Source: Balanoglossus misakiensis
Lineage: Eukaryota; Animalia; Hemichordata
Assembly: GCA_040954595.2 (NCBI GenBank)
Contig: CM082594.2
Span: 8,945,612-9,009,611 of the forward strand
Direction of reading: 5' to 3'
DNA length: 64,000 bases
In this document: positions 1 to 64,000 of the stretch, piece after piece
Numbering within the stretch: the first letter of the stretch is position 1
Layout of the letters: every line of letters begins with the position of its first letter
Made by a program: the position numbers and the translations under genes
Notes under the pieces: generated by a model
Databases searched by the model: none
What the model was told of the DNA's origin: nothing
What the model saw: only the letters and a program-made list of their open reading frames with translations

Positions 1-174
1 ATTTACTGAAGTTGGGAGAAGTTCCTGAATGTATACTAGATTGTCAAACCATTTTTATGCAAAATTGCTCTTTAAAATTTGAAACTTAAATAGTGACTAG
101 TTTCTTATGGTCCTCCCGGTTAAATGAGTTGACAATGACACTTCAATTGTGAATGATGTACTAAATATTCTCAC

Positions 175-3100: not shown

Positions 3101-5332
3101 ATTACCTGTGCAGTTGATTCCGTCTCCTTGGTAACCAGCAATACATTCACACTCATAACCTCCCAGAGTATTCAAACAATTCCCGTATTCGGTATTGCAG
3201 TCAGTTTTCCAGGGTGTACGACACTCATCAATATCTGTAGACAGAATAACATTTTCATTAATTTTCTCAGAGGGCCAATTTGATTCTGTTAAGTATGAGT
3301 ATACTTTTAGACTTGGTCAACATCAGCTTACATAGTTAATACCTGTTCATCAATCGTGAGAGTTTTGCTCTACCAAATAAATTGTCAATTTTGATTGCCA
3401 ATTTTATCATGATTTTATAAGTATTTTAGTCATATTTTCACATTGTTTTACTTTAATTCCAACTTACCATTGCAGGCAAATCCATTGCCAGCATAGCCAT
3501 CAATACACTCGCACACATAAGATCCCTCAGTATTGATACAAGTACTGTACTGTGAACAAGACGCTAAACCTTCTTCGCATTCGTTGACATCTGCAAGAAA
3601 ACTTTTCTCTTAATACCATCTTTGCTTCATTTTCAAAACATTAGGTGTTGAACGAAAATGGAACATGATGTTTCAGTAGGCAGAATGACGCAATGATATC
3701 CTTCTTACCTGAGCAATTGAAGCCATTGCCTGTGTAACCAGCCTTGCATTCACAAAAATACGATCCCTGTGTGTTAATGCATGTGGCGTCATCCACAGAA
3801 CAAGAGTGGTGGCCAGTCTCACATTCGTTGCAATCTGTGTGAACAGATCAGACCAGATGATGATTCAGAATCATGGAAATGCAATGTAACAAATCAATTC
3901 ACCAGAATAAGTAGCCATGAATCTGTGTTAATTGTCAAACATCATACACAACTCAAGAAAATGACTATTTCAGTGTTTCTAATTGTAGAAAGCAAAAAAT
4001 TATTTTAAGAATCAAATTTGTCCTGTCTGAAGAGTGAAATGTATGTACACTAAAATCATTTTTACCTTCGCAGATAATACCATCTCCTGCATATCCATCG
4101 TTACAAAAACAGATATAACTGCCGACGACATCAACGCATGTAGCTCTTGGATGGCAGACATTCAAATTTATGTCATCACATTCGTTGACATTAGTACAGT
4201 TTTTACCATCACCTCTCCAACCAGCGTCACATTGACAGATGTATGAGCTGATAGTATTGGTGCAGGTTGCATGTAAGTCACAATCATCCAGGTGTCTGCC
4301 ACATTCGTCGATGTCTGCAAGGGATAAATGTGATGAAATGGTAACCTTAATGAAATATATGAAATATACTTGGTAACCGTATCATTGACATGCACATATT
4401 TGCAATCTCTTAGTTGCCATAGTTACCTGTGCATTCCACACCAGACCCTTCATATCCATCACTGCATATGCAAATGAACGACCCATCTGTGTCTTCACAA
4501 TCAGCGTTTTCGTCACACTGAGGGGCCTCAATACACTCATTGATATCTGAGGGGTAAAAAGACAACAACGTCACAATACTGTACCGCATAAAGTAAAAGA
4601 CATCGCCATACCCTACATCTGATTTTAATCAGATTGATAGTAACATGTTATGTACACCAGATTGACTTACTCTCGCACAGTTTTCCGTCTCCATTCACAT
4701 CGCTGTAACCAGGGTAACAGGTACAATTGAATCCTCCATCTGTGTTGCTACATGCTGACCTGGGGTCACAGTCGTCGATGTTCAAATAACATTCGTCTAC
4801 ATCTGTGTACGATACCAATGGATATTAAGGATTTAATGATAGCAATAGTATACAGAGTTGATGAACAGTTGATTTTGAAAGGACAGAAATGTCTTCAGCA
4901 AATTGAAGATATATGCCTGGAGTATGCTGTGTATCTGTCGTAATAAAATCTTTCTGTGAGGTTCGGTGTGGTCTTACCAATGCAGTTGATACCATTTGGA
5001 TGAAGTTGATATCCATCGTTGCAACTGCATTCGAAACTTTCGTATGTATTGGTACATATCTGGTCACATATGCTGCCATTATTGAAGTCTCTGCCTTCAA
5101 AACACTCATCAAAATCTGGTGAAGAAATGGTACAGTTTGTTACAAAAGACTATAAACAGATAGTTCCACAATGACTGTACATTAAACAAGTTTTCAATGA
5201 TGCACATACATACATACATACATACATACATACATACATACATACATACATACATACATACATACATACATACATACATACATACATACATACATACATA
5301 CATACATACATACCCCGGGGTACATACATACA

Positions 5333-5366
<34 letters not shown>

Positions 5367-5404
5367 CATACATACATATATACATACATACATACATACA
5401 TACA

Positions 5405-5438
<34 letters not shown>

Positions 5439-5726
5439 CATACATACATATATACATACATACATACATACATACATACATACATACATACATACATACA
5501 TACATACATACATACATACATACGAAGAGTATAAGAACCACCCACCGTAACATTTAAAACCATTGCCAACCAATCCTTGTGGACATGGACCACACCTCAC
5601 ACCAACTTCTGGTGCAATGTTATCAAAGCAGAGCACACCAGGATAACAAGGTTCATCCAAGCACCCTTCATAATCTTCTTCACAAAAGTCTCCCGTGTAG
5701 GCAAGGGGGCATGTACAAGGAACCAC
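175..5726 (-). CDS. Mucin gene: downstream EGF/calcium-binding EGF array (~20 modules over ~18 exons), continuing off the window
   Basis: Repeated exons starting D(I/V/F)(D/N)EC with C-x-N-T-x-G-S-Y-x-C-x-C-x-x-G-Y/F, e.g. 175-426, 594-722, 961-1083, 1286-1405, 2067-2195, 4066-4313, 4978-5115. Confidence 0.9.
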
Positions 5727-8700
5727 CTGTATGATGAAAACAAATGCACCAATTAATGCACAGTAATTCCACATTGTACCAGTATTTTTTGTTAAATCAT
5801 TGAATCATACAACTTAATGCAAAGAAATGAAAACAAACATAGGAGCACAGTGGTATATAATGTGTTTAGTGAGTCACTGTCCACAAACCCTTACAAAAAC
5901 ATTCCATAGGCATCTATAGAATTCTATAGGTTACTGAATTTCTATAGAAGTTTATAGAATTTCTCGACGTCTATAGATTTCTATGAAGTTTTGGACCCCT
6001 TTTCTATTGAGCAGCAGTATAGTATAGTATTTTAACCAGGAAAACTGAATCTAGTGTATGACGTCACTTACAGCAAATTTATAATCAACAACGTCACTTC
6101 CTTCGACATATTCTGCATAGTTACAGGTACCGTTGTTTTGGCACTGGCAGAGTCGAACTTCGGGTATTAAGGTAGAGAGTGCTTGACCATCTGATGCTGT
6201 GTAGCCTATACGGACAGGGTCCAAACTTTCTGGTGTCCATACAAAAGTTCCATCTGTGAAATATAAAATAACAGTTGCATGGAAAAGATCTTCTACCAAA
6301 CAGTGTAGTGGAATATCATCGCTATGTCTGCCTACAATATGGGCCAGTCTGGAGATCTACTCCATGCTGTTGTTCCATGCAAAACAGCCAAAACAAGCTA
6401 GAGATATTGTCAAACCTGCTTTCGTGTAAAGTTATACAACTGAGTAGATAGCTACAGCTTATGCTGTGGTTTCTGTATGGAAATAATGAGTCTATCTAGT
6501 AGGTGTACCAGTACTTACTTGGATATATAGTTGCATTTTGTGGAACTGGACTTTTCAGAGAATATTCAATAAAGCTACCCTCGACATCAGTGGCGTACAC
6601 GTCAATGACAACCTGCTCGCCAACGCTGGCATTGATAACCGTGTTAGCATATAAAGATGGTGGATAGTTCACTGTGGAAAAAATAAAGTTCTGGTTTAGC
6701 ATATATCAGTATTCCCCATTGTATAGGTCATTACAGTCTGGTCTGTGTTTTATTTCACATTGTAATGACTCACAGATAGACAATCTTGAGAATCTGCGAC
6801 AACTGACTGAAACAATGTGCGCACAATAAGTGGTTGGAGAAAGTTAATACCATCATACCTAGATCTTCTGAGTCCTTTTGTAACTGTTCCGAGGTGATTT
6901 TTGTGGCTTCTCCAACAAGTGGGTTACTAGTTGTCAACGTGTCGTACAAACATTGCAGGTTGCTTCCACAGACTTCTTCAGCAACTTGAATAATTGTGTC
7001 TGGACTGGCTTCCCTGACTTCGTCAAAAAATGCTGGCACGAAATCGTTAACGTTGTATGTTTCCCATGACGTGCCATTATCGTAGATGAAAAGGGATTCT
7101 GTTTCTGTAACTTTCCCTGCAAAAGGCAAACATGATAGATTACAGTCTGTCGTTTTACAAGTTCGCAATGAAAATTACACCTGCACCACATCGGAAACAA
7201 GCTATCACATTTCCCATTAAGCACCTGCTAACGACTTAATCTGTGTACCCCACAGGGGATTAAGTTGATAAAGTAAACTTGCAAGAAGCAGTACTCAGTG
7301 TATATGCTATCATTCATGTCAGAAAGACTTCCTGCATATGGCTACCTACATGTTTGTCCAAATTTAAAGTAGTCCGCCTCGGTCAAATTTTGTCCGGCTT
7401 CCGACGGTTGCTGATATGTCCCGTTGCGCCTAAGGAAGTCATCGGCCGGGTTGTCATTCCACACACCGAGAAGTCCCCTTGTTTTGTTTTTGTATGGGTC
7501 AGGTGCTACAAGTGCAGCATCTAACATTCCCTCTGTAATGCACACAGACACACCAATGCCAGAGGAAAACACTGCCATTGTCCGAGTGAGATTCGATGGT
7601 ACTTCTACTTTAAGGTAAAACTGGACATCGATGAATTCATCAGAAGAAAACACATCTGCAATACAAGCATACAGTGCACAGTATAACTTTACAGTTTGAG
7701 ATACTTAAAGGTATATGGCTACCTGTACAAATTTAGCATCACAAACTGTCAACTGGATGCCCGTGAATAAAAGCCCCACATTGCCGTTAGAAGACTTGCA
7801 AGATACATGTATTGTCCTTTTAACCATACAGGAGCAAGTGACAATTAAAGATGATTGTATTCCTTTAATGCATACCTTCTGAAAGTGCACTCTTATTGAA
7901 CTCCTTGCCATCAACTAAGATGCTGTAATCCGTACCATTTTCATCCATTGTGAATTGCACCTGTGCATGATTGGGAAATAATCAAATGACAAAATGATCG
8001 GCATAGCTAGTTGTGTTCTGCAGATATGTGAATTATAATTTGATGTTTCCAAAATGAAGGTCAGAAATTCAACCAAGACTTGTCGTGTTTACGATATACT
8101 TACGATCGAAGAGCCATTCTGTTGAGCGACGAAGGCTGTAAAGATGGTAGCATTAGACTGTTCGCCACTTGCAGTTCTAAATCTTGACGTCCTGGCTTGC
8201 AATGTAAATTCGCCAGTAATGACTTCCACCAGTATGTATTCACCCAAACCATTAAATGTGTACGTCGCATTGTCAAGTGTTGTAATGTGTGGATCACCGA
8301 ACATAAAGCCTGCAAAAAATCAAAGTGGAAGAGTTTAATGCACCCAGCACATCAACTTTATTTTCAAGTTTACCGACCTTTATTAGTACAGTAACACATA
8401 CAATGGAAAGCAAACAAATCACTCTGAATAAGAATTGTTGATTTACTGAATTTTTATCCGAAGTTCCTGTGTACAGTTGGAGAGAAATACCATGTTTCAG
8501 CAATCCTACCTATTTTAGGAGGCTTATAACCAGTACAGCTTCCTCTTGGACGTTTCTCTTCATACATCTCACAGAAGGCAGGATCGCTTGAGGCGTTGCA
8601 ACAAAAATATCGCGGCAACACATCTTCATCTGATAAAATTTAGAACAGTAGAAAATTGACAATGTAATAAAGCTTTTGCTGTACTAAGTTTAAGGCGGTC

Positions 8701-11700
8701 CAAATAGTTAAATTTTAACAGTCTCGCATTTAGAATGAGTCAATATATACCGGCACTATGAATGTGTTATAAAAATATCCATTTGCAATTTTTCTAAGAA
8801 TCCTTACCAATCCACTGGAGGTATGATGTGTAATCAAAGAATCCAGCTCTGTTTATCCATTGGTAGCGCTCCATGTAACTGCTTTCCCACAAAGTCTCGT
8901 AGCCATCAATGAAGGAGTGGTCGTCACGATAACAACACCGCTGTCCAGCACCAAAGGCATTTGAAAATGACGTCTGCAGACAGAAACCTTGACCTGGAAA
9001 GTGGACAAGGATTATAAATTTTGTAGTGTGTTTGCAATCGCTACTGAATTTGTAAAACTCAAATATTCCTAAATACAGCTGTGTGGAAATCTTTGCAGTA
9101 GTGTATTACAATTACCTTGCAGTAAATCTATTACTCTCATCAGCCGGCGATCGACGCCCATTATATTGCCATTGCTGAACAGTCTGTCGGTCAATGCTTC
9201 ATCGCCACGACGACCTCTCCCGAAAGCTGCGTCATTACGCCCTTGGCCAAAACCGCACGGACAGAATCCCAAGTCGTCATTCCAATCACTGGGATCAGGC
9301 TGCTGATTGTACCAGTTCAGACACTCTTGCTTCGCGTTGAAAGTATCCGGTACATTATCCTCAACGCGGAATATCCAACGACCTTTCAATCCAGTATTTC
9401 CGTCAAACTGGTCCGGTCTGTACCGCTCATCAATCCCATTAAAATTCAACTGCGCATTTTCAATCTCACTCTCTATTCCTCTGCCACTGTTGTAGCCAAT
9501 AATGGCCCGGTTCAGGCTTGTGTATCCTCTGACATTGTAAAGCCAACGCATTTCATCTTCCATAAAGTTTATCAACACAAAACCGTACTTCCCATCCGTT
9601 GCCAATATTCCCTGAAATGTATTCGGCTAAAACGGGAGAAAAGGAAGACGACATGTATAAAGGTTTCTGAAACAATACAAACATTTATTACCAGAACACT
9701 CATAATAATTTGCCCTCTAGACTCACCGAATCTTTGGTATATTCAGCGAAAAAAAGCGGGACCTGGTACCAGGTAATCTTTAGAATCCAGCTGGCCTCAA
9801 AGCTGGCGAAGTCAGAATCAGGTTGATCGACACTGGGATATTGTGACTGGATTCTTGTATTGACGTCTTTCACCATGGCAACATCTTCATCTGACAAAAA
9901 TGCTGATGTATCATATTCCTGCAGCACAAGAATGCAGCTGTTACTTATCACGAAGTAATGCGTGTGCGTGTATGTACATTTTATGTTGCATGAATTGTGA
10001 CAATATACCTTATAGTACACCGCTCCGGAGTCAGCAAGTCCCAAGTCCACATCATCCCAGAATATTGCGATCATTGGTATTTCTTGATCTGTTGTAAAAC
10101 CATCAGGAAACGGATACGGGAAGGGATACTTGTCGCCATTTTCATTGATAAATACGATCAGACCATTGTCTGTAAACTGCAGCAATGAAAGACAAGTAAA
10201 CATGATTTACGGATAGATATATGATAACCTATTCTATGTATAAACACACATGAAAATGTTGACTATGAAAATAACATTAATACCAAGGCTATTGTACTTT
10301 GTCAAATGAACGCAAATACAGTATACTTACATACAAACTGTAGTAAAACTCTCCCCAGAATGGAAAGCCAAGTGGTGGGTTTATTGTCGGGGACACCAAG
10401 TCAAACATTCTGTTGGATCTTCTATCTTCTTTCATTTCACGAAGAGTCCAATCCCCATTCTCTGGTCCAAAGGGGAACATAATGATTTCTGAAAAAAGAA
10501 GTAATTATTTTTCCATCGGATGTTTTGGCATACAATGCTGAACATGTTTTTATGTTCCAATAAGTTGCATATTACATGTAAAATACTGTGAAATTGGCGA
10601 TATATACCTTTGCATGCAAAGCCATCTCCTCTATAGCCATCAACACATGTGCAGTTATAGTCCCCTAGAGTATTGGTACAATTTGCTTTGACGTCACACT
10701 TCGAAACACCAAGTGCACATTCATCAATGTCTGAAAAGAAATACAAGCATCTGTCTTACTTTGAGGAAGTTGTAACAATAAAATACCCATATTTCATTGC
10801 TTTAAAAAGCTGTGTGTGTGTATGTAAATCTGTGCAAGCAAAGTATATGTGATGTGAACAGACAGGCAAAAGATAAGAACCTTGTTCACAGCTGGATCCT
10901 GTCCATCCGTCTTTACAAAAGCACTGATAGCTGCTGATGTAGTCTTTGCATGTTCCACCATTTTCACATGGAGTAGATTCACATTCATTGATATCTGTAA
11001 GAAGCAATATTAAAAAGTAATAGAGACAGTATAGCAGAATGGCAAATTGTAAAATTAAATAATCAGAAGTAGCATTTGGAAAATAAACATTTCTGTTAAG
11101 TGTCTATGTAGTGCATCTCACCTGTACATGTAACGTCATTTGCATGCAGACTGTAACCATCGTAGCATTGGCATGTGTATCCATTATCAGTAACTGTCGT
11201 GTTAACATTGATGCATATTTGATCGCAGTCATTCAAAGTGATACTCCCACACTCATCAATATCTGTAAAGAAATGAGAGCAAGAATAGAAGATTTTGTCT
11301 TTACCAACTGACACACACAGATCTATATCTAGTACCACACAGGCTAATTTTAGTCCTAAAGATGTGTTTTGGATTCATATGAACAAAATATAGCTGCAGA
11401 ATAAACATAACCAGCTCAACACATTACATTTAATACAGACTTAGACTAAAGTCCTCTGCACAATTACCTTGGTGACAGTAGGCGCCAGTCCAACCAGGAT
11501 CACATTCACATCTGAACATGTCTATCATATTAATACATTTACCAAACAGACACGGATCACTGGCACATTCGTCGATTTCTGCGGAGGAAATAAACACCCA
11601 ACCTTATCAGTTTCTTGTTTGAGCTACAATCACACAAGATGTAAAATCAGAAGAATGTGTCATTCAAGTTTATTCAAGCACTACATGCTTACCTATATCA

Positions 11701-14700
11701 CAGTCGACACCAGTAAAGCCACCAAAACAGCTACAATTATACGCATTGACGTCGTCGATGCAGGTTCCATATATGCATGGTTGGCTGTCACATTCGTTGA
11801 TTTCTGAAATGGTACAGAACCATGAATATATTCAACTTGACTTGTTTAAACAGACATAAAATATACATCCCAAATATCAATGTACATGCAGTACACCTTT
11901 TTAAATCAGACTGTTCTTGGATAAAATACTTGTGATGAGGTAAATAAGATGATTGTTTACCGATTTCACAGTTGATACCAGTAAATCCTTGGTCACACGT
12001 ACAGATGTACCCATTAACAACATCATCACAGTTACCATAGATGCAAGGACTGCTCTGGCATTCATTGATTTCTGAAATAAAACCATGAAAATTAATTAAA
12101 TCATCAATCTTGTTTTTCTAGTACATTCAAAAGCACTAAACTTTCTCTATGTAAATAATCGGATGCCGTACTATTACAGTGTATTCTTTGCTTGTTTAAA
12201 GTGACATAGAAAGTCTCCATTGAAAAGACATCTTGGGATACAAGAATACTGAGTACTTACCAATACAAGTTGCTTGGTCTGTAGTGTTTAGTATATATCC
12301 AGCATTACATTGGCAATTATATGTGCCAGGCAAGTTCTGACAGCTTTGGTCACATAAACTGCCATCTAAGCATTCATTGATATCTGTTAAAAGAAATATT
12401 TCATTGTCCAGTTGTTCATGTTATTTGCAAACATGCATGTTCTGTTGTCCACCAACTTAATTTCATCTGTTGCATAATGAGAAGACTGTAATGCCATCAT
12501 CAAATGTATAGAAATTATCCTGTTATCTGTCAACTGAAAATCTTAGTGATACTGCAAAATATACTCACCTTCGCACAGAGAGTCACGAATTGGGTTCAAC
12601 TGATATCCACTATCACAGAAACATTCCTGCTGTCCGTTATTAACACTGCACTGACCCTTGAAACATTGTTTTGTACAAGGGATAATAGCTGTTGAAATGA
12701 CAATTAAGTTTATTATAAACTCACTATATGATCATCAATATAATCATCTTATACAATGCCATGTATTGTTATGAAGTCATGCAGACTTTTTGCTGTACTG
12801 TGTAAAACTTCAACTTCAAGGGAATTCTGCATACCTATACATGTACGTTTGTCTTCGCCAAGAACAAAGCCTTCTCGACACACACACTCATAGCTACCAT
12901 AGGTATTCTCACAAAGTTGACTGCATCCGTTGCTGGTACTGTCACATTCATTTATGTCTACATGATAAAAGTATTATAGTTACATGAGTGATGATTATCC
13001 ATAGTGTCCAGTGAAGCAATATATCGATCAAACAAATTCAGCTATTCAGACTTTAAATACAGCAACATGAGAAATGCAACAAAGTGAAATTGGTGTCTCA
13101 CCGTCATTACAGGTTACTCCATGGAAATTATCTGGGCATTTACAAATTGGCCCATCACCACAATTTAAGCATATTCCACCATTGTTGCATGGTTGCACAC
13201 AAACATCTAAAAGTGAATATAAGAAAAAAAACTAAATATGTTAAGTATAAATCCCTTATGGTAAGGACACTTGTATTACATATTGTAGCTGCATGTCCAC
13301 ATTGATTCAACAAATCTTTGAATTATAAAAAGAGTAAGTTACCACTAAAGTATAAATGTACAATCTTACCAGACTGACATCTTGGGCCGGAAGGTGATTC
13401 TGAGGTTGCCGTCTCATATACAGTATCTTTGAAAGTTGTTGTTTCAAGAAATGTTGCGCTTTGATAGTGTTCTTCTGTGATGCCAGCATAGCTAGAACTC
13501 TCAGTTGTCAATTCACTGGTTGTTACTCGTTGTGTTTGAGAAGTTTCAATAGTACGTACATTGGTTGGTCTTGTTTCAGTCCCTGTTGGTGCAAAGCTAT
13601 CAGATTCTGTGCTTGAAATAACTTGCAAATGTCTTGTGGAAACTTCTTCCTCGATATCAGTTGTCAGAAGAAGAGGTGTTGCTGTAAACTTGTCTTCTGT
13701 TGCAATAAGTTCAGATGACTCATATTGCGTGCTGGTAACTGCGAATGTTGGAAGGTCTCTTGGCATAGTCTGGTCAGTGGTGACATACATTGCAGCTGTT
13801 GAAGTAACCTGTTTTGTAGCTTCATTCTCAATGCCGTCTACTGTTCTTTCGGCTGTACTCAAGCTATGACTTGTTGTATATGTATTTTCCTCTAATGTCA
13901 AAGTTGACCTATCATCTGTCTGAGAAGCTTGTGATGTAGATCTGGGAGTTATTTGTCCAAATGTTCCAAGCATATCTGCTGTTGATGGCTGCTCAGTTGA
14001 TGTAAACCCTTCTATTGCAGTGACAGTTTCATACTCAGATGATGTAGTTTCAATATCTTCTATTGGTGTGAAAACATCTGCTGTTGATGGCTGCTCAGTT
14101 GATGTAAACCCTTCTATTGCAGTGACAGTTTCATACTCAGATGATGTAGTTTCAATATCTTCTATTGGTGTGAAAACATCTGCTGTTGATGGCTGCTCAG
14201 TTGATGTAAACCCTTCTATTGCAGTGACAGTTTCATACTCAGATGATGTAGTTTCAATATCTTCTATTGGTGTGAAAACATCTGCTGTTGATGGCTGCTC
14301 AGTTGATGTAAACCCTTCTATTGCAGTGACAGTTTCATACTCAGATGATGTAGTTTCAATATCTTCTGTTGGTGTAAAAACATCTGATGTTGATGGCTGC
14401 TCAGTTGATGTAAACCCTGCTGTTGCAGTGACAGTTTCATCCAGGGATGTTGTAGATTCTACTCCTTCTGTTGCTGTTAACACACCTGCAGTTGATAGCT
14501 GCTCAGTTGATGTAAACCTTGCTGTTGCCGTGACAGTTTCATCCAGGGATGTTGTAGATTCTACTCCTTCTGTTGGTGTTAACACACCTGCAGTTGATGG
14601 CTGCTCAGTAGATGTAAACCTTGCTGTTGCTGTGACAGTTTCATCCAGGGATGTTGTAGATTCTACTCCTTCTGTTGATGTTAACACATCTACTGTTGAT

Positions 14701-51010: not shown

Positions 51011-51016
51011 TTTATT
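51011..51016 (-). terminator. Polyadenylation signal AATAAA of EctC-like paralog A
   Basis: TTTATT on the + strand, ~130 nt past the stop codon. Confidence 0.55.
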
Positions 51017-51145: not shown

Positions 51146-51895
51146 TTATTCAGGAAGTTCATATGAGGAATATCCCTCACTCCATACATGTCTCTCCAAT
51201 CCTGTTATAGTCGGAGAGAAAACGCATATGCATAAACTAGTCTCTGCTGCCACAGCTTCGTGTTTATCGTGTTGGTCCATAATGTAAGCGGTTCCATTGA
51301 CATGAGATTCAACCGCTTTAGCGCCCTCATCCCATTCATACGTCACCTTCCCAGCGAAGTAGTAAGCGGACTCTAAGTGGTTCAGGTAGACCATTCTGGA
51401 GCTTGTTCCGCCCCTGACAAGGGTGTTTGTCAAGCTCACGGGGAACCCGTCTGATTTCAGCAGGAAACGCCGACTGTCCCCGGAGCCCCAGTCGACGCTT
51501 CTCTCGGTGCCGATGATTTCCGACAGGGACCGACAGACAACACGGTCTTCTTCTGGCTTGATATCTTTGCAGTATACCACATACACGCGAATGCGTGACT
51601 CCACCAATAACTTGGCTGAGATGCCAGAAGAAAACGCCATCATTTGATCCGCATCCACTTTGATCGACTGACCACCAGGAATCTGCACACTACCTGTGCC
51701 TGATATGCAGTAATACATGTGATTCAACTTTTCCACTTCCGACGATTTCAGGTTGACAGTTTCGCCAGCCTCGATGAAGACCTCATAGGCTGTATGATTC
51801 ATGTTGTCAGCCTCTGCTACCAATTCTTTACCCTTCAATTCTGTGTTTGGAAGGACAGTGGTGGCAGACACCTCTTCAGAATGACGCGTAATCAT
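51146..51895 (-). CDS. ectC-like: Ectoine synthase (EctC)-like tandem double-cupin protein, paralog A (249 aa), CDS intronless
   Basis: C-half RSLSEIIGTER.VDWG.G.SRRFLLKSDG...YLNHLESAYY...GTAYIMDQHDKH...CVFSPTITGLERH matches recalled EctC motifs (YxNHLE, GTxYxLDxHDxH, CVFNPPxTGxExH). N-half MITR...EAGE...YYCISGTGSV is a degenerate second copy. Start context GCCATG. Confidence 0.88.
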   Translation of the reverse strand: MITRHSEEVSATTVLPNTELKGKELVAEADNMNHTAYEVFIEAGETVNLKSSEVEKLNHMYYCISGTGSVQIPGGQSIKVDADQMMAFSSGISAKLLVESRIRVYVVYCKDIKPEEDRVVCRSLSEIIGTERSVDWGSGDSRRFLLKSDGFPVSLTNTLVRGGTSSRMVYLNHLESAYYFAGKVTYEWDEGAKAVESHVNGTAYIMDQHDKHEAVAAETSLCICVFSPTITGLERHVWSEGYSSYELPE

Positions 51896-51916
51896 GGCTA
51901 CTGGTCTTTCTGTAGT

Positions 51917-52900
51917 CTGTCAAATAATTAAAATGACTGAATCAAAAAACTAGTATATAGCCATCGCTCATTTTTTCTGGTCGTGTTTCCCGTGGCTAGT
52001 GCATGTTCATGCATGTAACAAACGAACTTATCTAAACGCATGAATGGTATACAATCCCCCTTTAAAGTTCATGGATTCGCCTGGTGCCTGGACCGTCCAG
52101 CAAGTCAGCAGAACCGCGTGTGCATTGTGTTTTCTTGGTGTGGCCCCATTAATTATAAATAAGTCACGCGAGCTACTTGGCCTACAGACTGACAGATAAG
52201 CATGCAGTCCAAAGACATCTGGTAAAATTAAGCAGTTAAAAGTGGCAGTTAACGTTCCTCGTACATTACGGAAACAGATTCAACCAATTAAAAATAGTTT
52301 GCGAACTAATCACCGATTCTTTCAAATAATTCTAATCGTGGACAAAGTGGGCGTGTCCCCAGCGCGGTAGGCGACTGGCAGCCATGGCCATACTTAACCT
52401 TTATAAGCCATCAGAACAAGTGAAACAACGGCTGTTATTAAGAGTTTTCGTGGTCGTCGTAGGTCCTTTGTGGCTCTATTGTGATGTCGTTTCATTTCAG
52501 TCCTGCCTTTTAGATCCATGGTCCTGCTAACACCACGCTCGCTCGTACCGAACCAAGTTTTATCCGGGCTATGAGCTGCGCTGATAACCTTCGGGCGGAT
52601 CGCGAAAATTACGGGCCGAAATCTACACAGGCCGAAACAACCAGTTTACCGAGGGTCCATGGTCAACTATGCGTCTCATTAAACAACCTACCTCCTGATC
52701 GGTATATTCCCAAATCCTCCTTATAAGCAATTCGCTCCGCGTAAGTACGCTGCCACAGACTATCAGATAGTTACGTCACTGACCTGGTTAACTGCCCTAA
52801 TCCTATTTGCCCAGGGACCTTGTTAGCATACTGTCAGTTGTCATTCAAAGTAGGTAGACTTAATTTTAGCCTCATTGTGAAGAGGAGAACCAAATTGTAC
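51917..52900 (-). promoter_or_regulatory. Paralog A: 5'-UTR intron (51917-52691), non-coding exon 1 and putative proximal promoter
   Basis: Acceptor TTATTTGACAG| 21 nt before the ATG; donor GAG|GTAGG at 52692/52691. Segment 52695-52895 aligns by eye with 54215-54435 of paralog B. Confidence 0.65.
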
Positions 52901-52990
52901 GTGATGTAACTTGCAAAAAATATATGATACAGGTACTGCGTGTGTGAATGAAATATTGAAGTAAAAGGCTTACTTATGATGCACTGTCAT

Positions 52991-52996
52991 TTTATT
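52991..52996 (-). terminator. Polyadenylation signal AATAAA of EctC-like paralog B
   Basis: TTTATT on the + strand, ~136 nt past the stop codon, an equivalent position to paralog A. Confidence 0.55.
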
Positions 52997-53131: not shown

Positions 53132-53890
53132 TTATTCAGAGGGTCCAAAACCAGAATAGCCACCATGGAATTCGTGATTCTCAGAGCCAACCAAGACGGG
53201 GTGGAAGACGCAGAGACAATAACAGTCTTCTGAGGCCACCAATTGATGGTTATCATGTTGGTCCATGTTGTAGATTGTGCCCTGGTTTGGTCCAACACGA
53301 GATTCTACCACTTTAGCGCCCTCATCCCATTCATATTTAACTTTCCCGGCGATGTAGTAGACCGATTCCAAGTGATGCCTGTAGCCTAGCTTGGAACCAT
53401 GACCACCTTTGGCATAGGTGTTATTGAAGCTCACGGGGAACCCGTCTGACTTCACCAGGAAACGACGACTGTTTCCGCGACCCCAGTCGATGTCCCTTTC
53501 AGTGCCAATGATTTCTGACAGGGACCTACAGACAACACGGTCTTCTGCTGGCTTGACATCTTTGCAGTAAACCACATAAAGGCGAATGCGAGACTCTGCC
53601 AATAACTTGGCTGAGATGCCAGAAGAAAACGCCATCATTTGATCCGCATCCACTTTGAACGACTGACCAGCAGGAATCTTCACACTACCTGTGCCTGATA
53701 TGCAGTAATACATGTGATTCAACTTTTCCACTTCCGACGATTTAAGATTGACAGTTTCGCCAGCCTCGATGAAGACCTCATAGGCTGTATGATTCATGTT
53801 GTCAGCCTCTGCTACCAATTCTTTACCCTTCAATTCTGTGTTTGGAAGGACAGTCGTGGCAGACACCTCTTCAGAATGACGCGTAATCAT
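53132..53890 (-). CDS. ectC-like: Ectoine synthase (EctC)-like tandem double-cupin protein, paralog B (252 aa), CDS intronless
   Basis: Same architecture as paralog A: GTERDIDWGRGNSRRFLVKSDG...YRHHLESVYY...GTIYNMDQHDNH...CVFHPVLVGSENH. Confidence 0.88.
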   Translation of the reverse strand: MITRHSEEVSATTVLPNTELKGKELVAEADNMNHTAYEVFIEAGETVNLKSSEVEKLNHMYYCISGTGSVKIPAGQSFKVDADQMMAFSSGISAKLLAESRIRLYVVYCKDVKPAEDRVVCRSLSEIIGTERDIDWGRGNSRRFLVKSDGFPVSFNNTYAKGGHGSKLGYRHHLESVYYIAGKVKYEWDEGAKVVESRVGPNQGTIYNMDQHDNHQLVASEDCYCLCVFHPVLVGSENHEFHGGYSGFGPSE

Positions 53891-53915
53891 GGCTACTGGT
53901 CTTACGTACTGCAGT

Positions 53916-54440
53916 CTGTCAAATAATGAAATGTTAAAACATTATCAATATTGCTATTATTCTATTTTTTCCGGTCATTATAACCGTCCAATGTCAGGCG
54001 ATGTGCTGGAAATTTCGGTTAGTAGAGTGTGATTGATTACACGAGACTTGTATAGCCTTATCTCAAAGAGGCAGTAACCCCAGACGATTACAAATTTTAC
54101 CACCGAACTTGTTAGCCAAAATAGGCAATTTCAATGTCAGTATTGAACATTTTGCCATCCGTGAAACATACGTTGTATTTGAATCATAATGAATAACTTA
54201 TTACCTCTACTTAAATGATCGGTAAATTCCCAAATACTCCTGACAAGTAATTCGCTCCAGATATGTACGATGTGCTGTCTGGCCGTTTGTCACAGAAAAT
54301 GGCACAGCTCAATAGCAGTGCGACCTAACCTTTTTGCCCCGCAGGACCTTTGTAGCATGGTCACGTGCACGTTACTAGTCAGCTGTCACTCTAACCTAGG
54401 TAAACTTTAGCCTAGTTATGAAGTGGAGAAACAAACCGAG
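53916..54440 (-). promoter_or_regulatory. Paralog B: 5'-UTR intron (53916-54204), non-coding exon 1 and putative proximal promoter
   Basis: Identical acceptor TTATTTGACAG|; donor GAG|GTAAT at 54205/54204. Shared blocks with paralog A (+ strand): TGATCGGTAwATTCCCAAATmCTCC, AATTCGCTCC, GGACCTT, TTTAGCCT, TGAAGwGGAGAA. Confidence 0.65.
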
Positions 54441-55792
54441 CGTGCAGAGGTAAACTGCAAAATCTATACAATGCAGTTTATACGCCCAGAAGAGCACATT
54501 GGTAAACAGGTAATGAATTTGTGGCTGGTATGTTATGGTACATGGTGCGCGCATCAGGTGCAAGTGGGGCTGGTATAGTGAAGTTTGCTCTCCCCAATCA
54601 CAACCTAGAACAATCTGACTCCGTTATTGCCACAAGGTGACCCCTGGCCAAAGATAAGGTGACCTCTGTCTGAAGGAAATGGCCGTCCTCTAAGTACTGT
54701 GGACAATATCGACAAGGTGGGTGCCAGTTTCAAGCTGACACCTGTCTGTTTCAGTGTTTGTTTTCTGCAAAAAAATGGCAGGCGTCTGTCTGAAACTGAC
54801 ACCGACCTTGTTGATTTCATCTATGGTATCTAAGCGACTGAAAGGCTGCTAAGTAATGAATTCTTTTATTCCTGTCATGTCTAAGAGACTAAAACTTTAT
54901 TTGATTGCAAATCCTTCTCTTTGAGAAGCAGTTTTTATATGGTACAAGACACTCACATGACTTGAGCAGAGTTCAAGAATATATATATAACCTTTATTGG
55001 TGCAATCATATCATTTATTCAATGCATGATACATAAATTCTGTAAAAAAAGTGTTGATAAAATTGCTTGAAAAGATAGCATTTGACCCAGCAGCCTCTAA
55101 GTACATAAACTATGTGAATAACCACCAGACATGTTCATCTTCTGATACTTGAAACCTTTCCATCCCCATTTCCTTAGTTTCAATTCTCATTATTATAAAA
55201 GTGAAGGGTATCAAAATAAACTTCCCACATCATGGTGCAGAATCATCTGTGAATTTTACAGCCACAGACTACTTCTATGTAAATAACTCACAGTAGATGG
55301 AGTTGTTTATATAAAGAAAAAAATTAGCACCTACCCAATCAAATATCTTTGTACATGTTAAAATAGCATTTCTGCTTGTGTAAAATTTTGAAATATGAAA
55401 ATAGAAACACAGATATTGTTGTTGTGTTACATTATCACCATATTATTGAATCCAACTATTTTTGTTTGTTAGTGTCAACTACCATAATCCCACATTAGTT
55501 GATTTGTACATTAGCTTATTAATCCGATAATCAATTTCTGTACTGGTTATGCTAATACCAGTCCACACAAATGCAAATTTCAAAAATGGCAGTAGAAATT
55601 GCATTAATGTGTTAAAAGATCAACCAGTTCACTCTAGAGTTACACATTCTATCACTGGCTTGTGTTGTCAATGAAAACATGATCTCGCCACTGACTACTG
55701 AACTCTATAGGTATCCCTAATTTCTTGTTAGAGCTGTACCATACCCAACTTCACTGGAAGACATTCAATGTGATTGTTGTTGTTAAGAGGAT

Positions 55793-56677
55793 TTAGGACT
55801 GGTTCTCTATGAACGATGTGTGTGCTTCATTGGGTAGTGTATTTTCATCAGTGTCAGGTAGGGTCACATCTGTAGCAATCTCTCCGGTCACTTCAACCAC
55901 ATCATAAGCGCAGAAGTCTTCCAGATCCAGTTTGGAACACAGCCAGCCGTAGAAGCCCTTCTCAAAGTCTTTGAAGTCTCTTTTCCAGGATGTGAAAAAC
56001 CAGGATATTTGGACAAACGCAGCGTACAACGCAATGCCTAATGTCAGTAGGACTATGGCTGGCGGGTAGAAAATGATGAGCACTGGACACAGCAGTATTC
56101 TGTACGCGATACCTTTGTCGTCGTAATAATGAACAAAAACACCGTACCATGTGATGGTTCCCAGGTAACCAGAAACGACAAAAGACGTGACGAAGGCAAC
56201 CGGAATGCACAGTAAACTAAAAAGGAAGACATGAATGCCCTTATCAAAGCCCCAGACACAATCATCCGGTGTGTCCTCGTGAGTCAGTGATTTCAGATTA
56301 TCTTCCGAAATAGTGACTTGGATATCTTGGATTTTCTTTCCGCGTCGAATCGTTCCCGTCAGCGTAATGCTTTTCCCACCGACAGATGACGTTGTAGTGT
56401 TGATGGTATCTCTACTCTGACTCAGTTCTTCAATAGTATCATCATGTCGGCTTACTGACGAATCGTTCAGAGTGTCGCGCCAATACTCCGATGAACCCTC
56501 CTTCACTTGATTATCTGCTGCTTGTTTCTCAAGTAAATGCACATCGCTTTCCTTTACGGTCTGTGCTTGTTCCTCTGCATTTCTTCTTTCTCTTTTCAGC
56601 TTTTCTTTTTTGATAATCTTCTCAGCTGGGCTTGGCCCATGTTCTCCCTGCTTGCTTTTATCAGGTGACTTTGGCAT
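55793..56677 (-). CDS. TMEM169: Transmembrane protein 169 (294 aa), single coding exon; 5'-UTR intron ~56715-57127
   Basis: Motifs ITLTGTIRRGKK, GTITWY, CPVLIIFYP, LYAAFVQISW, EKGFYGWLCSKLDLED match recalled TMEM169. First ATG (MPKSPDK) is at 56677; the track start at 56704 is a TTG. Acceptor TCTCAG| at 56715 and donor CAG|GTAAAA at 57127. Confidence 0.92.
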   Translation of the reverse strand: MPKSPDKSKQGEHGPSPAEKIIKKEKLKRERRNAEEQAQTVKESDVHLLEKQAADNQVKEGSSEYWRDTLNDSSVSRHDDTIEELSQSRDTINTTTSSVGGKSITLTGTIRRGKKIQDIQVTISEDNLKSLTHEDTPDDCVWGFDKGIHVFLFSLLCIPVAFVTSFVVSGYLGTITWYGVFVHYYDDKGIAYRILLCPVLIIFYPPAIVLLTLGIALYAAFVQISWFFTSWKRDFKDFEKGFYGWLCSKLDLEDFCAYDVVEVTGEIATDVTLPDTDENTLPNEAHTSFIENQS

Positions 56678-57127
56678 GATGATAATATATGCAGTGTCTT
56701 TCAAACTTTCTAACCTGAGAATACAAACATATTATTGGAGTGATGTCATAGTTCTTTGGCAGGAGGCAGAACCAAACCTATAACCCTGTTATGATCTTTC
56801 CATTAGACACTGCTTTCTGTGCCATGACAATGTGACCATGGAAGTACCTTTCAATGGCGTGGCCATGGATGATGACCGGCTACTTCCATTCAGGGTCACT
56901 CCACACCACACACACTGGACTGGTATCTGATTATGGATGTGTACTATAATCAGACTGTACATCCATGGTCTAAAGTAGACGACCCCAACATCATGCAAGT
57001 TCACAGCTGGGTTTGACATTCTAAATAAGATTGAGAAGACATCCCACAATCATATTGACATTGGTTAGGTTCATTGAGTTCATGTTTAACGCCCTGTTTT
57101 CAATAACAAATACTCTTTCACTTTTAC

Positions 57128-57551: not shown

Positions 57552-59716
57552 ATGGCGGACGACGATGATAGCATTTGGAGAACTACCCAAGATCAACAAC
57601 AGGTAACTTTCGCGTAAATCGTTCGTACTTAAAGCATACCAGTGAATGTCATGGATCCCATAGAATTTGTGCTAGAGTTAAATGACTTTGCGCGAGATTT
57701 TTTAACGTTCGTAGAAGACTTTGACCTGGCACATGTATATGTAGTTCGTTGCCACATTGGTCTGATCGCACGTACGACACAACAATAACACAGCCCACCA
57801 ATGGAAACAATATTGAGCTGAAGGTCTTCTCATTATAACGACTTGTGCTCATGTCGTAACTAGTCGGTTACGTGTCCTGATAACATTCTCCATTTTCTTA
57901 CAGACTACAGGGTTTATTGTCGGCGGCGATGGCTTGGGCGACTCAAGTTTTGACAGTACGTAAAGAAAGAATAAGTTTGATATTTACATCATTCTATTTC
58001 CGGTCAAAATAATATCAAAAATTCTGATATAGACTCACTGTAGATTGTTATCAGGGTTTCTGAGATACTTGACCTGTGTCAAAAAATAATCTCAAGATAC
58101 ATTTGCATCTCGTGCAATAATGATTGATGTTCAATGACGTATACATGTACATTACAATTTACATCAAGTCAGCGATATTGACACCCCACAGTGTGTTTGT
58201 TCTGCATGCAAGCATTCCAGATTACAGGCTTTGCTTACTGTCAGAAATTTTGTCTGTGTGTATTCAGTTGACTTGATTAATGGAGAGATGAAAATCGAAG
58301 CAACCAGTCCGACTGCTGTGGGAAACCAAAATCAGACCAGGTTTAATCTGGGCAGAAATAGTACTAGTAGCAGTACATCATTGACTCAGAATGACAGTAA
58401 TGCATCCCTTATACTGACAGGTAAGGGTGTCTGTGGGCATGCTGATAAAAATGTAAACGGAAAGAAATACGCAATTCTTTAACGTCTAAGCAGGCAAGAC
58501 ATGTCTGTATGAAATTTGTACTGTGACCAGTCCATGTTTCTTCATAACCTGTTTTTCTGTCATCTGTTCAAACTGGTAACCATACTCTTTTCTTCTTTCA
58601 GATGATGACGATGATGACAATACAGCCAATGTGAAAATGTACAGGGATAAAAGGAGGAGTGCCCACACTGCAGCTGAGCAAAAGAGAAGGGATGCCATCA
58701 AGGTAATGGAGATAATAGTAGCGCTGTCTGCATTACATTGTTGTATGAAAATGCTGCTAACACAGTGCAGGCACGTTCATTGGGTCCTGCTGTCAGTGTC
58801 ACCATACTCTAAGCGTGTGAAAAATTGTGAGTACAGTGTATTATGTGTGAATATGGATGTTTTTTGTGTGATTTTATCAGAAAGGATATGAAGACCTGCA
58901 GAACATAGTACCAACATGTCAACAAACAGACGCAGTGGGATCACAGAAGCTAAGCAAAGCTGCCATCCTGCAGAGGTCAATTGATTACATCAAGTTTTTG
59001 GGTCAGCAGAAAAAGAAACAAGAAGATGAACTTAGCGCACTTAGGAAAGAAGTCATGGCACTGAAAATCATGAAAGCGTAAGTGTCCATCCGTTAACGGT
59101 CAAAGATCGAATGATGCAAGTGTTCATATGGTCACTCTCCACCCAATTTGACACTCGTCAAAGTGAGAATAATTTTTAATTTTTTCCTATTCAGGAATTA
59201 TGAACAGATTGTAAAGGCTCATCAAAACACACCGGCAAGTGGCAGGAATCAGATATCAGATGAAGTCAAATTTCAAGTGGTGAGTAGGATTTCGCATTTG
59301 TAGCATTACAGCTCCTCACAAAGAATATCATTGAATCTGTATGTGATGGTTATTACACATCCCATTGACATGTTGACATTCTTTTTTCCAGTTTAAATCC
59401 ATAATGGATGCTCAGTTCCAGTCCTTCAACGCATCAATATCAGTGGCCAGTTTCGCTGAACTGTCAGGATGCGTGTTCCATTGGTTGGAGGAATGCTGCA
59501 AACCACAGGTTGGTGTCCAAACTAAATTTCATATACATGTACATGCTATCAGCACATAGATGCACAGCTCACAATCCATGCCTGCACAGAAGTTTTCACA
59601 GTGATATCCACAGTATTTTACTCCAACACTTACATTTTTTCTATTTTTAGGCACTTCGGGAACTGGTCCTTGGTGTTCTGCGAGCCACAAACCATCAACT
59701 TTTCAGCAATGTGTGA
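57552..59716 (+). CDS. MLX: Max-like protein X, bHLH-Zip; 8 exons: 57552-57602, 57904-57955, 58268-58420, 58602-58702, 58881-59077, 59195-59279, 59392-59508, 59651-59716
   Basis: Basic region RRSAHTAAEQKRRDAIKKGYEDLQNIVPTC, HLH KLSKAAILQRSIDYIKFL, zipper LRKEVMALKIMKANYEQIVKAHQ, and C-terminal VKFQVF...FAELSGCVFHWLEECCKPQ. All junctions are GT-AG and in phase. Confidence 0.95.
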
Positions 59717-60874: not shown

Positions 60875-63800
60875 TCACAGATGTTCGAGAGCATTTCTGA
60901 GTCGTCTCATTCCTTGCAGGGTTACAATGCCGAGATGTTGAACGACGTAGTTATAGAAAAACTCTGGAGCCTACAAATGACAACAGAATAAAATCATTTC
61001 AGAATTTTGCTGATAAAATTTGAATCATTAATTGAATGTGAACAGATGCGAATCAATATTAAAAATCGATTCTGAGTATGACCTGATTCTCAAATAACAG
61101 AGCAACATTTGTGAATTAAACGTGTCTGACCTATGTTTCACTCATGACCTTTTAGCAGTGTAAATAAAACAGAATGAGTCAAGCAGAGAAAGGTGGGTAC
61201 AAATGTGATAAATGACAGGATGTATTCTTGGTCGGAGTCAGATTACATTTTTTGTAACTCACAAAAGACCGGACAGCTGTGCAGTGCTGATACAGACATT
61301 TTGTTCACATATTTCATATTTACCTCTTCTCTAAGTTTCATTAGGAATATGAGGTCTTCTCCAGTGATTGCTTGCTTGGATTTTCTGAAATGAACAAATA
61401 GCAATTGCGATGACATTCAGTGATTTAGGATAACAGTAAGTTGAAGAGTATGTTGAGGTTTGAGGTTTGTCGACATAAGATTTGCACTAACAACATCAAT
61501 ATGCAATAGGCAAGAGAAAATGTCATCATTAAAGTGTGTGACTGTAGTGATGATGATGGTACTCACAGTTCGATGCCGTTGTCTTTCATCCAATTTTTGA
61601 CCTCACTTTCACTCCACTTGTTGGCCGGGTGAGAAGCAGTTGTTGGTCTGCCAGTCGACACAGCTGAGGTCGCTGCAGCCACAGTTTCACTTTCCACAGC
61701 AGAGACAGTAGCTCCGCTGTTCACTGGTTTCGCTCCCATCTTGCCTCGTTCTCCGAGCTCTCTTACAAGTTGCTTCATGCACGTGCCAAAGTTAGCGCCC
61801 CTTTTCGCTAGGTTGATGTAGAATTTTGTTCCCACGATTGCGCCTAGCCATCCACTGGGTTTATATCGCTCTTCAACCATGAGCGGAACCACATCCTTCC
61901 TCAGTTGAAACGCATACTCTGCCTCTGTGAAGAGAAATGCCAAATTATCGTTCGACTTGCCATCCACAAATACACAATAAAACATTGTGCAACTGTATCA
62001 CCTACAAGTTGATGAATGAACAAAATGAGAATCTAAACAGAGATGCAGTAGATCAACACCACTTCGACCTAAATCACAAGCGAATGAACAATATTCATCA
62101 CTTTGCAATTTCAAATGGCAAAATCCATTAAAAATGTTTTGAATGTCATTGATAGATTTATGATTATGGGCAATATACTGACCTACTCTACAATTTGGAC
62201 TGTCTTTATATTTCTGTGACACACACATCAAGACTACTGCAGCATTTTCAACTGCGTCTGCCATTGCCTGCAATGTTGATCCTCCCATCTGCTCCAAGTC
62301 CATCCAAACTCGGTAGCCATTCTTTTCCAGGTGCTGTTTTACTTTTATCATCAAATTCTGCACATCCCATTGGTAGCTGATCATCACGTGTTGACACTCG
62401 TCACGTGTTTCCGCTTCCTCTCCGTGTTTGTCTGCATGTTTGATGATGATGATGATGATGATGGTGGTGGAAATAGAAAAGGGTCATTGCGGTAATTATA
62501 TGCCATTTCATTTTATCTATTGCAAACTATTTATCTCATTGTTCTTGAAAATGAAACACGACAATTAAAACTGTGGAAGGGGAAGAAGACATTCCTGCTT
62601 ATCAGTTGTGCCTTACCTCGTAATTCTTTTTGGCCTTCAAGTACCCACAATGCACCATTTGCTGCTTTCTGCACATCCTGACTTGGGTGAGTCTTCAGTG
62701 ATTCAATCTTTTCCATGGCGCCCGGTTGCTGTTTAATTTTCTCTCTGCTGTCGTCATCGAACGCCAGGTTCCAGATAGTTTTGACGGCGAACAGCTTTTC
62801 CTTCTCGTCGCCTTCGTCCATGAGGTTGACAAGCAATGGCAGAGTCCCCGCCTCGATTATCTTTGGTTTGTTTTTGTCGTTGTTGGCAAGACATGAGAGC
62901 GCTTGGGCGATCTCCTGTAAAACATATGCGGTCAAAATAACTGAGTATTCTTAGCCCGGCATAACACACAGCAGAAAGGAAAATACATCCCCTAAAAAAC
63001 AAGGACACCAGGCCAAGAGACTGGGCTCGCTCATCAGACAAAAATCTCTCCTACTCTTAGCCTTACCTCGGCCGATATTCCAGCGTCTGATGACGTCTTA
63101 TCCGTCGACCTCAACGCCTTTTTCAAATGAAGGCTCAGGAATGCGATGATGTTATCATCGGCTGCGATGATATCACTCTGCTCATCGTCTTCATCCACCA
63201 GATAAGCTAGAGCCATGTATGTAATAGATTTGCGCATAATTTCCGACGACTTTGTGTACGGCACAAGGGCTTTGATTGTATCGTGTTCCGCGAAAAATTG
63301 GCGGCTCACGCCACCTTTTGCACAGTTGCTCACAATGGATAAACATGTCACCACGAAAACAGAGTCGATCTGTAAAGTAAGAAAAGGAAATAACATTTAG
63401 TGGCCTAGAACGTTACGTATAAACTGTACATGTATGTCACTTCTAACGAGCAAGTTTAATTGAATGTTGTAATAATTTAAGGCATTCCTGCTTAATATCA
63501 AGAAAGAAATGAACAAAAATAAGTAAAAAGTATACAAACTTAACTTAAAAAGCCAACAATGCCAAGATACAATGAGAATATAGGGAAGGACCTCAAAAGA
63601 AGGAAGTAACCCAGTGGGCCATATGTCTTACCTGGTTCAAATGAGGGCTATTGTTATTGATGCATTTCTCGTTCTTCAAATGTTGTATAATCATTCCTAA
63701 AAATCCTGTTTCCCGACACTGCTCACAAATCAGTGAACTCCTGTCCGAAAGAGAAGTGATGATGTCCGCACAGTTGATGTAAGTGATGAAAACTTGCTGG

Positions 63801-64000
63801 TTTCTGTCCAAGGGCCCCGTGTTTTCCAACGCCTGGCAGTACCTGTTGATGGTGTAGACAAACTTGTCATACGCCAGCTGGTCACAGAGGAGCCGACGCT
63901 GTTCTTTACTTCTGTAGGTCATAGCAGGTGACCTGACCTTTACGTCAACTTCATTGTACACCTTCTCCAAAGAATCGGAAGACGCTGGGTTTTCACAACA
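60875..64000 (-). CDS. ARM-repeat / TIR / SAM-like protein, 5' end outside window; exons >64000-63632, 63369-63067, 62914-62617, 62431-62183, 61924-61567, 61384-61324, 60970-60875
   Basis: ARM repeats (ALSCLANNDKNKPKIIEAGTLPLLV, TIWNLAFD, AANGALWVL); TIR (HVMISYQW...GYRVWMDLEQMGGSTLQAMADAVE...SQKYKDSPNCRVEAEYA...VPLMVEERYKPSGWLG); SAM-like tail (WSESEVKNWM...ITGEDL...LRNALEHL*). Exon phases are consistent. Confidence 0.88.
62441..62470. repeat. Short intronic (GAT)n/(GGT)n microsatellite next to the TIR-exon acceptor
   Basis: Directly visible. Confidence 0.8.

Follow-up and report, generated by a model that had tools for sequence, protein, structure and literature searches.

A probable single-chain pseudo-dimer of the EctC family with one predicted metal site per chain in the hemichordate Balanoglossus misakiensis and in bacteria

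In a 64,000-nucleotide stretch of Balanoglossus misakiensis DNA (the window), two tandem genes each encode a chain with two barrels of the ectoine synthase (EctC) family, only the second of which holds a set of metal ligands. We estimate at about two in three the probability that these proteins are single-chain EctC pseudo-dimers that form or open amidines at one Fe(II) site, architecture and chemistry being taken jointly. Animal ectC-like genes, labeled “L-ectoine synthase-like,” are already published for Branchiostoma floridae and Saccoglossus kowalevskii (Harding et al. 2016, PMC4987115) and belong to the same family as the window genes, as their orthologues or paralogues; the passages of those accounts that deal with them make no mention of doubling, a dead N-half, cnidarian or annelid members, or bacterial fused relatives. 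The genes reappear in PMC5796728 and PMC5924519, which in the relevant sections call orphan EctC function unresolved. What orphan EctCs and animal ectC-like genes do is a question posed in ectoine reviews, and the fused subfamily bears on it. In the literature searched, whose coverage of subscription journals is thin, we found no account of a double EctC whose N-half is dead. Pseudo-dimeric bicupins as such are well known. The apparent recent homogenization of the two copies’ N-halves is new here. Our data present the animal proteins labeled “L-ectoine synthase” as a distinct fused subfamily with one predicted site per chain, whose interest lies in the reaction, a testable bacterial cluster, an early transfer and gene conversion restricted to one half.

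Table 1. Features of the two double-EctC genes in the window
Feature	Position	Strand	Remark
Copy 1, double-EctC bicupin ORF	53132..53890	-	252 aa, intron-free within ORF
Copy 1, N-half, aa 1-112, cupin derived from EctC, lacking metal ligands and lid	53555..53890	-	HMM, Pfam, fold
Copy 1, C-half, aa 119-252, orphan-type EctC barrel	53135..53536	-	P. lautus EctC alignment
Copy 1, putative conversion tract (~40 nt upstream plus codons 1 to ~117)	53540..53931	-	inferred
Copy 1, pyrimidine-rich stretch ending AG, 25 nt 5' of ATG	53916..53930	-	read from sequence
Copy 1, AATAAA, ~135 nt past stop	52991..52996	-	read from sequence
Copy 2, double-EctC bicupin ORF	51146..51895	-	249 aa
Copy 2, putative conversion counterpart	~51545-51932	-	inferred
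Copy 2, AATAAA, ~130 nt past stop	51011-51016	-	read from sequence
Upstream non-coding blocks	54216-54272 vs 52696-52752		82% alike
Upstream non-coding blocks	54378-54476 vs 52833-52932		70% alike

The C-terminal half is the EctC-type catalytic barrel. Against PF06339 (gathering cut-off of 27), it scores 117 bits in copy 1 (residues 119-246) and 102.6 bits in copy 2, and the copy 1 half aligns to P. lautus EctC with an E value of 1e-18. An earlier note, made from the sequence alone, had put both proteins at ~250 aa, as the ORFs bear out, and had the Glu, Tyr and His ligands kept in this half; they are indeed kept in both copies, with Glu175, Tyr207 and His215 of copy 1 aligning with the P. lautus iron ligands Glu57, Tyr84 and His92 (mapped after PMC6344544, section 9). 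Equivalents of Ser23, Arg25, Asn38, Thr40, Tyr52, His55, Glu57, Tyr84, His92, Cys104 and Phe106, and of the lid, are retained in copy 1, whose pocket comprises a shifted Trp136, Ser141, Arg143, Asn156, Thr158, Tyr170, His173, Glu175, Tyr207, His215, Cys227, Phe229 and the lid pair Glu237/His239; the substrate residues Ser23, Arg25, Asn38, Thr40, Tyr52 and Phe106 and the C-terminal lid are all present. Trp21 in W-x-S-R-R is absent: its column holds Gly139, and Trp136 sits three positions earlier, a shift described for orphan EctC-type proteins (PMC6344544). Compared to EctC (EC 4.2.1.108; P. lautus 5ONM/5ONN/5ONO and S. alaskensis 5BXX/5BY5), the C-half shares the barrel, the Glu/Tyr/His iron site, the substrate residues and the lid, whereas the window proteins differ in that (i) they have two barrels per chain and one ligand set; (ii) the Trp is shifted by three positions (WGxGxSRR); (iii) their family carries a new Tyr179/Tyr186/Trp188 signature, with Tyr186/Trp188 present in the copy 1 C-half; (iv) ectAB is not adjacent; and (v) the Glu-to-His spacing is 40 and 37, compared to 36 in 39 of 48 single EctCs. 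Both copies miss the NCBIfam PRK13290 ectoine synthase cut-off of 128 (120 and 110.3 bits for copies 1 and 2). Copy 2, which is 78% identical to copy 1 and lies on the same, minus strand, has Thr at the Asn38 position, a 3-aa deletion ahead of the Tyr-ligand strand and a divergent lid.

The N-terminal half, read in the earlier note as a degenerate EctC cupin, is EctC-derived. An HMM of 26 single-domain genomic bacterial EctCs gives it 27.3 bits in copy 1 and 22.7 bits in copy 2, against 8.1 bits for the top of 1,000 shuffles; its own top Pfam match is PF06339 (E of 2.4e-5; 25.1 bits, below the cut-off of 27); and the AF2 model of this half alone (pLDDT of 92) finds EctC chains in the first 8 Foldseek rows, overlaying 5BXX with a Z of 15.0 and an rmsd of 1.9 over 104 aligned residues, where the next non-EctC row has a Z of 12.4. 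HMM, Pfam and fold matches agree on a cupin related to EctC. The ligand positions hold His59, Met86 and Ala94, the three residues named beforehand, when counted from the conserved YC and the strand anchors, the HMM alignment being gapped just ahead of His59. Also missing are the Trp/Ser/Arg substrate residues and the C-terminal lid, a loss that the earlier note did not mention: the PF06339 match runs only to position 108 of the 127 in the profile. Among the N-halves of 31 animal-type and 21 bacterial-type rows, none has Tyr in the Tyr84 column and a single one has His in the His92 column; mean N-half identity among the animal-type rows is 30%.

Structure prediction suggests that the N-half replaces the usual partner subunit. 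EctC is a homodimer of ~130-aa subunits, whereas each window protein is a 250-aa two-barrel chain, which AF2 models as a bicupin (pTM of 0.85, with low confidence at residues 128-146, the Trp136 loop) matching the bicupin 1sfn across both barrels (Z of 21.2, rmsd of 2.9, 211 residues aligned). Folded as two chains, the halves pair with a score of 0.90 compared to 0.00 for the best of three controls; of 78 solved complexes, 51 attain the mark for this score, as do 2 of 108 mismatched pairs, and the pass may stem from resemblance to the solved EctC dimer. Contact agreement in these runs was at least 97% and partner pLDDT at least 90. The closest predicted contacts, residues 205-208 with 2-6 and 120-124 with 83-87, correspond to the pair of contacts that the N-terminus and strand VIII make in the EctC homodimer (PMC6344544, section 8), and thus the head-to-tail strand pairing of that dimer is likewise predicted between the halves, with the N-half bracing the strand that bears the Tyr ligand. 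Residues 2-5 form a strand when the whole chain is modeled but not in the model of the N-half alone. Columns conserved in at least 85% of the 52 animal-type and bacterial-type rows number 5 in the N-half (Met1, Asp30, Tyr62, Gly66 and Ala87) compared to 23 in the C-half; apart from Gly66, the five fall in the predicted interface, where Tyr186 and Trp188 are also located. The models are thereby consistent with the single-chain pseudo-dimer that the earlier note had proposed. Two barrels in one chain, packed like a monocupin dimer, are the hallmark of bicupins such as (S)-ureidoglycine aminohydrolase/YlbA (1RC6, 4E2Q, 1SFN) and pirin, which nevertheless share 10 to 15% identity with the window proteins and arose by fusions of their own, from other cupin families that differ in ligands and reactions. 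Bicupins such as YlbA and pirin have one metal site per chain.

The two copies diverge very unequally along their length. Their dS amounts to 0.097 for codons 1-117 and to 1.16 for codons 118-252, with synonymous differences of 5 in 105 in the N-halves and 33 in 81 in the C-halves (Fisher P = 1.4e-9), and the tree path between them is 0.057 for the N-halves and 0.71 for the C-halves, the latter being like the path from the copy 1 C-half to other hemichordate genera (0.62-0.69). Because paralogous non-coding blocks precede both copies (Table 1), the duplicated unit includes upstream DNA. We read this pattern, from the sequences, as a duplication of old date followed by recent N-half conversion, or else as a recent chimera. 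Homogenized N-halves beside diverging pockets are what would be expected of an interchangeable scaffold, and the pair would offer a natural experiment, with near-identical scaffolds and two different pockets, and apparently a clear case of gene conversion limited to the non-catalytic half of a pseudo-dimer. A similar step is seen in the Glandiceps proteins P0004/P0005 (96% identity over residues 50-155, 69% over 156-246) and is absent from the Saccoglossus P0006/P0008 and Branchiostoma P0013/P0014 pairs. That the two C-halves are ancient paralogue types found throughout deuterostomes was considered and set aside, the tree being unresolved on this point (AU P = 0.239 for the copies as sisters).

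The fused subfamily is older and wider than deuterostomes. A homologue search gave 21 matches, with Ptychodera, Glandiceps, Saccoglossus, Branchiostoma, Asterias and Amphiura among the genera, and a profile search of 1.84 billion representatives, for which 30 rows were looked up, added Acanthaster, Owenia, Nematostella and Mesorhizobium, so that the double-EctC architecture spans hemichordates, amphioxus, echinoderms, Owenia, Nematostella and Alphaproteobacteria (Mesorhizobium, Stappia). When the Mesorhizobium protein was the query, 41 of 49 matches, Stappia and a Salinarimonadaceae bacterium among them, spanned at least 99% of it. The bacterial fusion is rare among the genomes searched, with 3 of 401 for the order, 2 of 202 for the genus and 0 of 401 for the class. 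A tree of 97 C-halves and single EctCs (129 columns) places the C-halves of the animal-type (28) and bacterial-type (21) fusions together in a single clade (100/99) nested in the WGxG orphan EctCs, in line with the orphan-EctC donor suggested earlier; type labels were given by similarity for 9 of the 26 animal-clade rows of the full-length tree and 17 of 21 bacterial-type rows, P0039, P0055 and P0060 (degenerate C-halves) and P0268 were left out of the trees, and 6 near-duplicate single EctCs were left out of this one. The orphan EctCs (Czech et al. 2018, 2019) have the shifted Trp and the lack of an ect cluster in common with the fused clade nested among them, but those described are single-domain proteins and, according to PMC6344544, all have three iron ligands, whereas the fused clade often replaces the Tyr.

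Trp188 is found in 21 of 21 bacterial-type, 28 of 31 animal-type and 0 of 48 single EctCs, Tyr186 in 21 of 21, 27 of 31 and 0 of 48, respectively, and the animal-type and bacterial-type N-halves are each other’s best profile match (99.8%). The longer two-cupin proteins P0050/P0057, which lack Tyr186/Trp188, were treated as a separate fusion and served as an outgroup. In the full-length tree (51 rows), 26 rows, including all 17 that come from named animals or the window, form a clade (95/91) that is sister to the bacterial-type rows plus two further rows (91/96), and the window copies are sister to Ptychodera within hemichordates (98/92). Over the 129 columns of the catalytic half, an alternative in which the bacterial fusions join a single-domain orphan, and not their animal counterparts, is not rejected by the AU test (P = 0.155). 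Since derived residues are shared across animal and bacterial members, a single origin of the fusion is likely, in an orphan-EctC lineage and ahead of its entry into animals; in the simplest reading, a fusion made once in bacteria would have passed early and a single time, probably in this direction, into animals or their ancestors. The search for bacterial double EctCs that the earlier note had suggested for dating the fusion thus points, through Mesorhizobium and Stappia, to an old fusion shared with bacteria and not made in the window lineage. As to its mechanism, the internal duplication proposed in that note and a fusion of two ectC paralogues are indistinguishable, because hhalign places the N-halves closer to free EctCs (98.5-99.5%) than to their own C-halves (40-88%). 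The bacterial double EctCs P0062, P0072, P0128 and P0136 likewise have two PF06339 domains per chain, but both halves score high and the lid region is kept, unlike in the window N-half; as they lie outside the clade and lack Trp188, we regard them as a separate fusion.

Several observations were made in passing. Animal-type P0020-P0023, P0049 and P0051 end near residue ~165, suggesting an intron there in other lineages, unlike in the window genes, and P0039 (from Glandiceps), P0055 and P0060 have also lost the C-half ligands and pocket residues and may be pseudo-enzymes with both barrels dead. Other EctC fusions (P0056, P0077, P0106, P0115 and P0123) involve a EutA-like racemase, formyltransferase-like domains (two), a PhyH dioxygenase and a GNAT acetyltransferase. 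In a Methylobacter MAG (L001:3019-6103), genes for a PigA/RedW-like prolyl-carrier dehydrogenase and an adenylation enzyme come after an orphan ectC. The ESM Atlas yielded nothing specific, its matches being generic bicupin clusters from bacteria and a single cluster of 275-aa ectoine synthase. The TAL-effector and VEGFR rows that came up when the PDB was searched by sequence had no passing stretch or weak scores and were attributed to chance.

The bacterial relatives provide a genomic context. At all five bacterial loci, which represent two lineages only, the double-EctC gene is accompanied by a DfoA/DesB-like diamine N-hydroxylase, a DfoC/AlcC/DesD-like ligase, a 2OG-Fe(II) oxygenase and an opposed MFS gene. 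The fusion is the sole PF06339 match in each of the five genomes, and none has EctA over the cut-off. A hydroxamate acyltransferase (PF13523) was not found in the cluster at any of the five loci; elsewhere in the genome it is over the cut-off in four of the five, and the fifth (G181) has none over it genome-wide. The location of the fusion in a desferrioxamine/alcaligin-type cluster without ectA hints at a substrate other than ectoine’s precursor, and the compact five-gene cluster would make the reaction accessible to expression. In the 64-kb window, no partner gene of this cluster was matched. At L037-L039 and L042-L043, the desferrioxamine/alcaligin-type cluster combines the double-EctC cupin with a WelO5-like 2OG oxygenase and lacks the acyltransferase; the oxygenase match in G245 carries an internal TGA.

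From these results, we propose the following mechanism. With two EctC barrels and one ligand set per chain, as sequence and fold indicate, N-half residues 2-6 would pair with C-half residues 204-208, which bear Tyr207, and C-half residues 120-124 with N-half residues 83-87, as in the head-to-tail EctC dimer. By analogy with EctC, Fe(II) on Glu175/Tyr207/His215 would polarize an amide carbonyl, an internal amine would attack and water would leave, so that a cyclic amidine is closed (or opened); the substrate is likely an N-acyl-diamine or a diamino acid other than, or besides, N-gamma-ADABA. EctC itself also makes ADPC from glutamine and hydrolyzes homoectoine and DHMICA, as PMC5924519 recounts, suggesting that the site tolerates related amides. 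The fusion, formed in the orphan-EctC lineage and shared with Alphaproteobacteria, would have entered animals before the cnidarian-bilaterian split and been inherited vertically with losses; tandem duplication would then have yielded two pockets of different specificity, conversion keeping the scaffold halves interchangeable. The Tyr ligand of the C-half is kept in only 12 of 31 animal-type rows and is Phe in 21 of 21 bacterial-type rows. The corresponding Tyr is strict in the 582 EctCs surveyed in PMC6344544, and Tyr85Phe in S. alaskensis EctC leaves 29% of the activity and 9% of the iron (PMC4795551, Table 1), so that the chemistry of the fused family may have left that of EctC. A bolder and distinctly doubtful version holds that the one-site pseudo-dimer is a separate enzyme class, which would replace the acyltransferase of an alphaproteobacterial desferrioxamine/alcaligin-type pathway by an acyl shift or ring formation via a cyclic amidine, and which, captured once before the cnidarian-bilaterian split, would make cyclic-amidine metabolites in marine invertebrates; there the catalytic half would diversify, with the scaffold half held uniform by gene conversion.

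A plain, if fused, ectoine synthase that makes the osmolyte ectoine from N-gamma- (or N-alpha-) ADABA supplied by food, gut bacteria or an unrecognized animal route is possible, since copy 1 keeps the lid and all the P. lautus core residues bar the shifted Trp. The orphan EctC of P. syringae complemented an H. elongata ectC mutant, according to the account in PMC5924519, and some single-domain relatives adjoin ectoine-catabolic or amidase genes: L005 lies beside DoeA (over the cut-off) and a EutC-like gene (under it), and P0056 is fused to a EutA-like domain (under the cut-off). We nevertheless hold this reading to be doubtful: ectA and ectB were not found in the 64-kb window, Harding et al. 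(PMC4987115), in the part on Branchiostoma and Saccoglossus, list ectC-like and degenerate ectD-like genes and no others, the closest bacterial fusions sit in a siderophore-type cluster without ectA, both copies fall below the ectoine synthase cut-off, and pocket residues vary between paralogues, with position 38 being His in 13, Thr in 12 and Asn in 6 of the 31 animal-type sequences.

Besides serving as a scaffold, the animal N-half might hold a ligand-sensing (allosteric) pocket, which we consider unlikely. His59 (29 of 31), Tyr61 (29 of 31), Tyr37 (25 of 31) and Tyr/Phe108 are conserved in the animal-type rows, although a pure scaffold would not need the first three; as these residues are not in the interface, they should line the barrel lumen, whose mouth may be open without a lid. 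Yet bacterial-type rows differ (Gln in 16 of 21 at position 59, His in 14 of 21 at position 61), mean N-half identity is low, bulky aromatics may merely fill a dead cavity and the two local N-halves are interchangeable.

We give a similarly low probability to chemistry outside the EctC type, such as the rearrangement of an N-hydroxylated, ligated intermediate in the manner of cupin hydrazine synthases or an acyl shift in place of the hydroxamate acyltransferase, kept in animals for some metabolite. N-hydroxylase, ATP-dependent ligase and cupin together follow the gene logic of cupin N-N bond formation as laid out in PMC8664883, PF13523 is absent from the cluster and, over the cut-off, from all of G181, and, where EctC has Asn38 and Tyr84, the bacterial type invariably has Cys and Phe. 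However, zinc cupin hydrazine synthases (PyrN, RHS1) have an Asp-x-His-x3-Glu...His site (RHS1 residues from PMC8664883) and a MetRS-like partner, whereas the fused proteins, by inspection, lack the Asp-x-His-x3-Glu motif and have the EctC motif His-x-Glu, with an NIS ligase as the bacterial partner. PF13523 is, moreover, available elsewhere in most of these genomes, the window lacks matches to the cluster partners, and its copies retain the Tyr ligand.

Bacterial contamination or an assembly artefact, to which the intron-free ORFs and near-identical N-halves might point, is very improbable given the intron-rich animal genes on the flanks, a GC content of 47-48% similar to that of the TMEM169 ORF (44%), and closest relatives that are hemichordate proteins on multi-megabase scaffolds in a tree that follows animal kinship. 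The best database match is a Ptychodera flava protein (64%), and the window DNA is animal, with EGF, NIDO and vWD exons, a TMEM169 ORF and TIR/ARM exons. At both start codons, the sequence reads GCC-ATG. Copy 2 has a counterpart to the upstream AG of copy 1 at 51918-51917, 21 nt 5' of the ATG, and these AGs may be splice acceptors in the 5' UTR; the AATAAA motifs could be poly(A) signals, although they are weak evidence in AT-rich DNA. The wider window showed further features. Upstream of the EGF/NIDO/vWD exons (1-13300) lies a single unbroken ORF of 10,391 codons with Thr/Ser/Glu-rich repeats (13323-44498, minus strand), which together with the flanking exons reads as a giant mucin-like gene with a 31-kb exon. 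The TMEM169-family ORF (55793-56704, minus strand, 303 aa) is immediately upstream of copy 1. A short exon at 58631-58891 (plus strand), which has no Pfam family at an E value of 0.001, resembles a bHLH basic region. At 61563-63970 (minus strand), ARM-repeat and TIR_2 exons make up a TIR-ARM gene that is cut by the window end.
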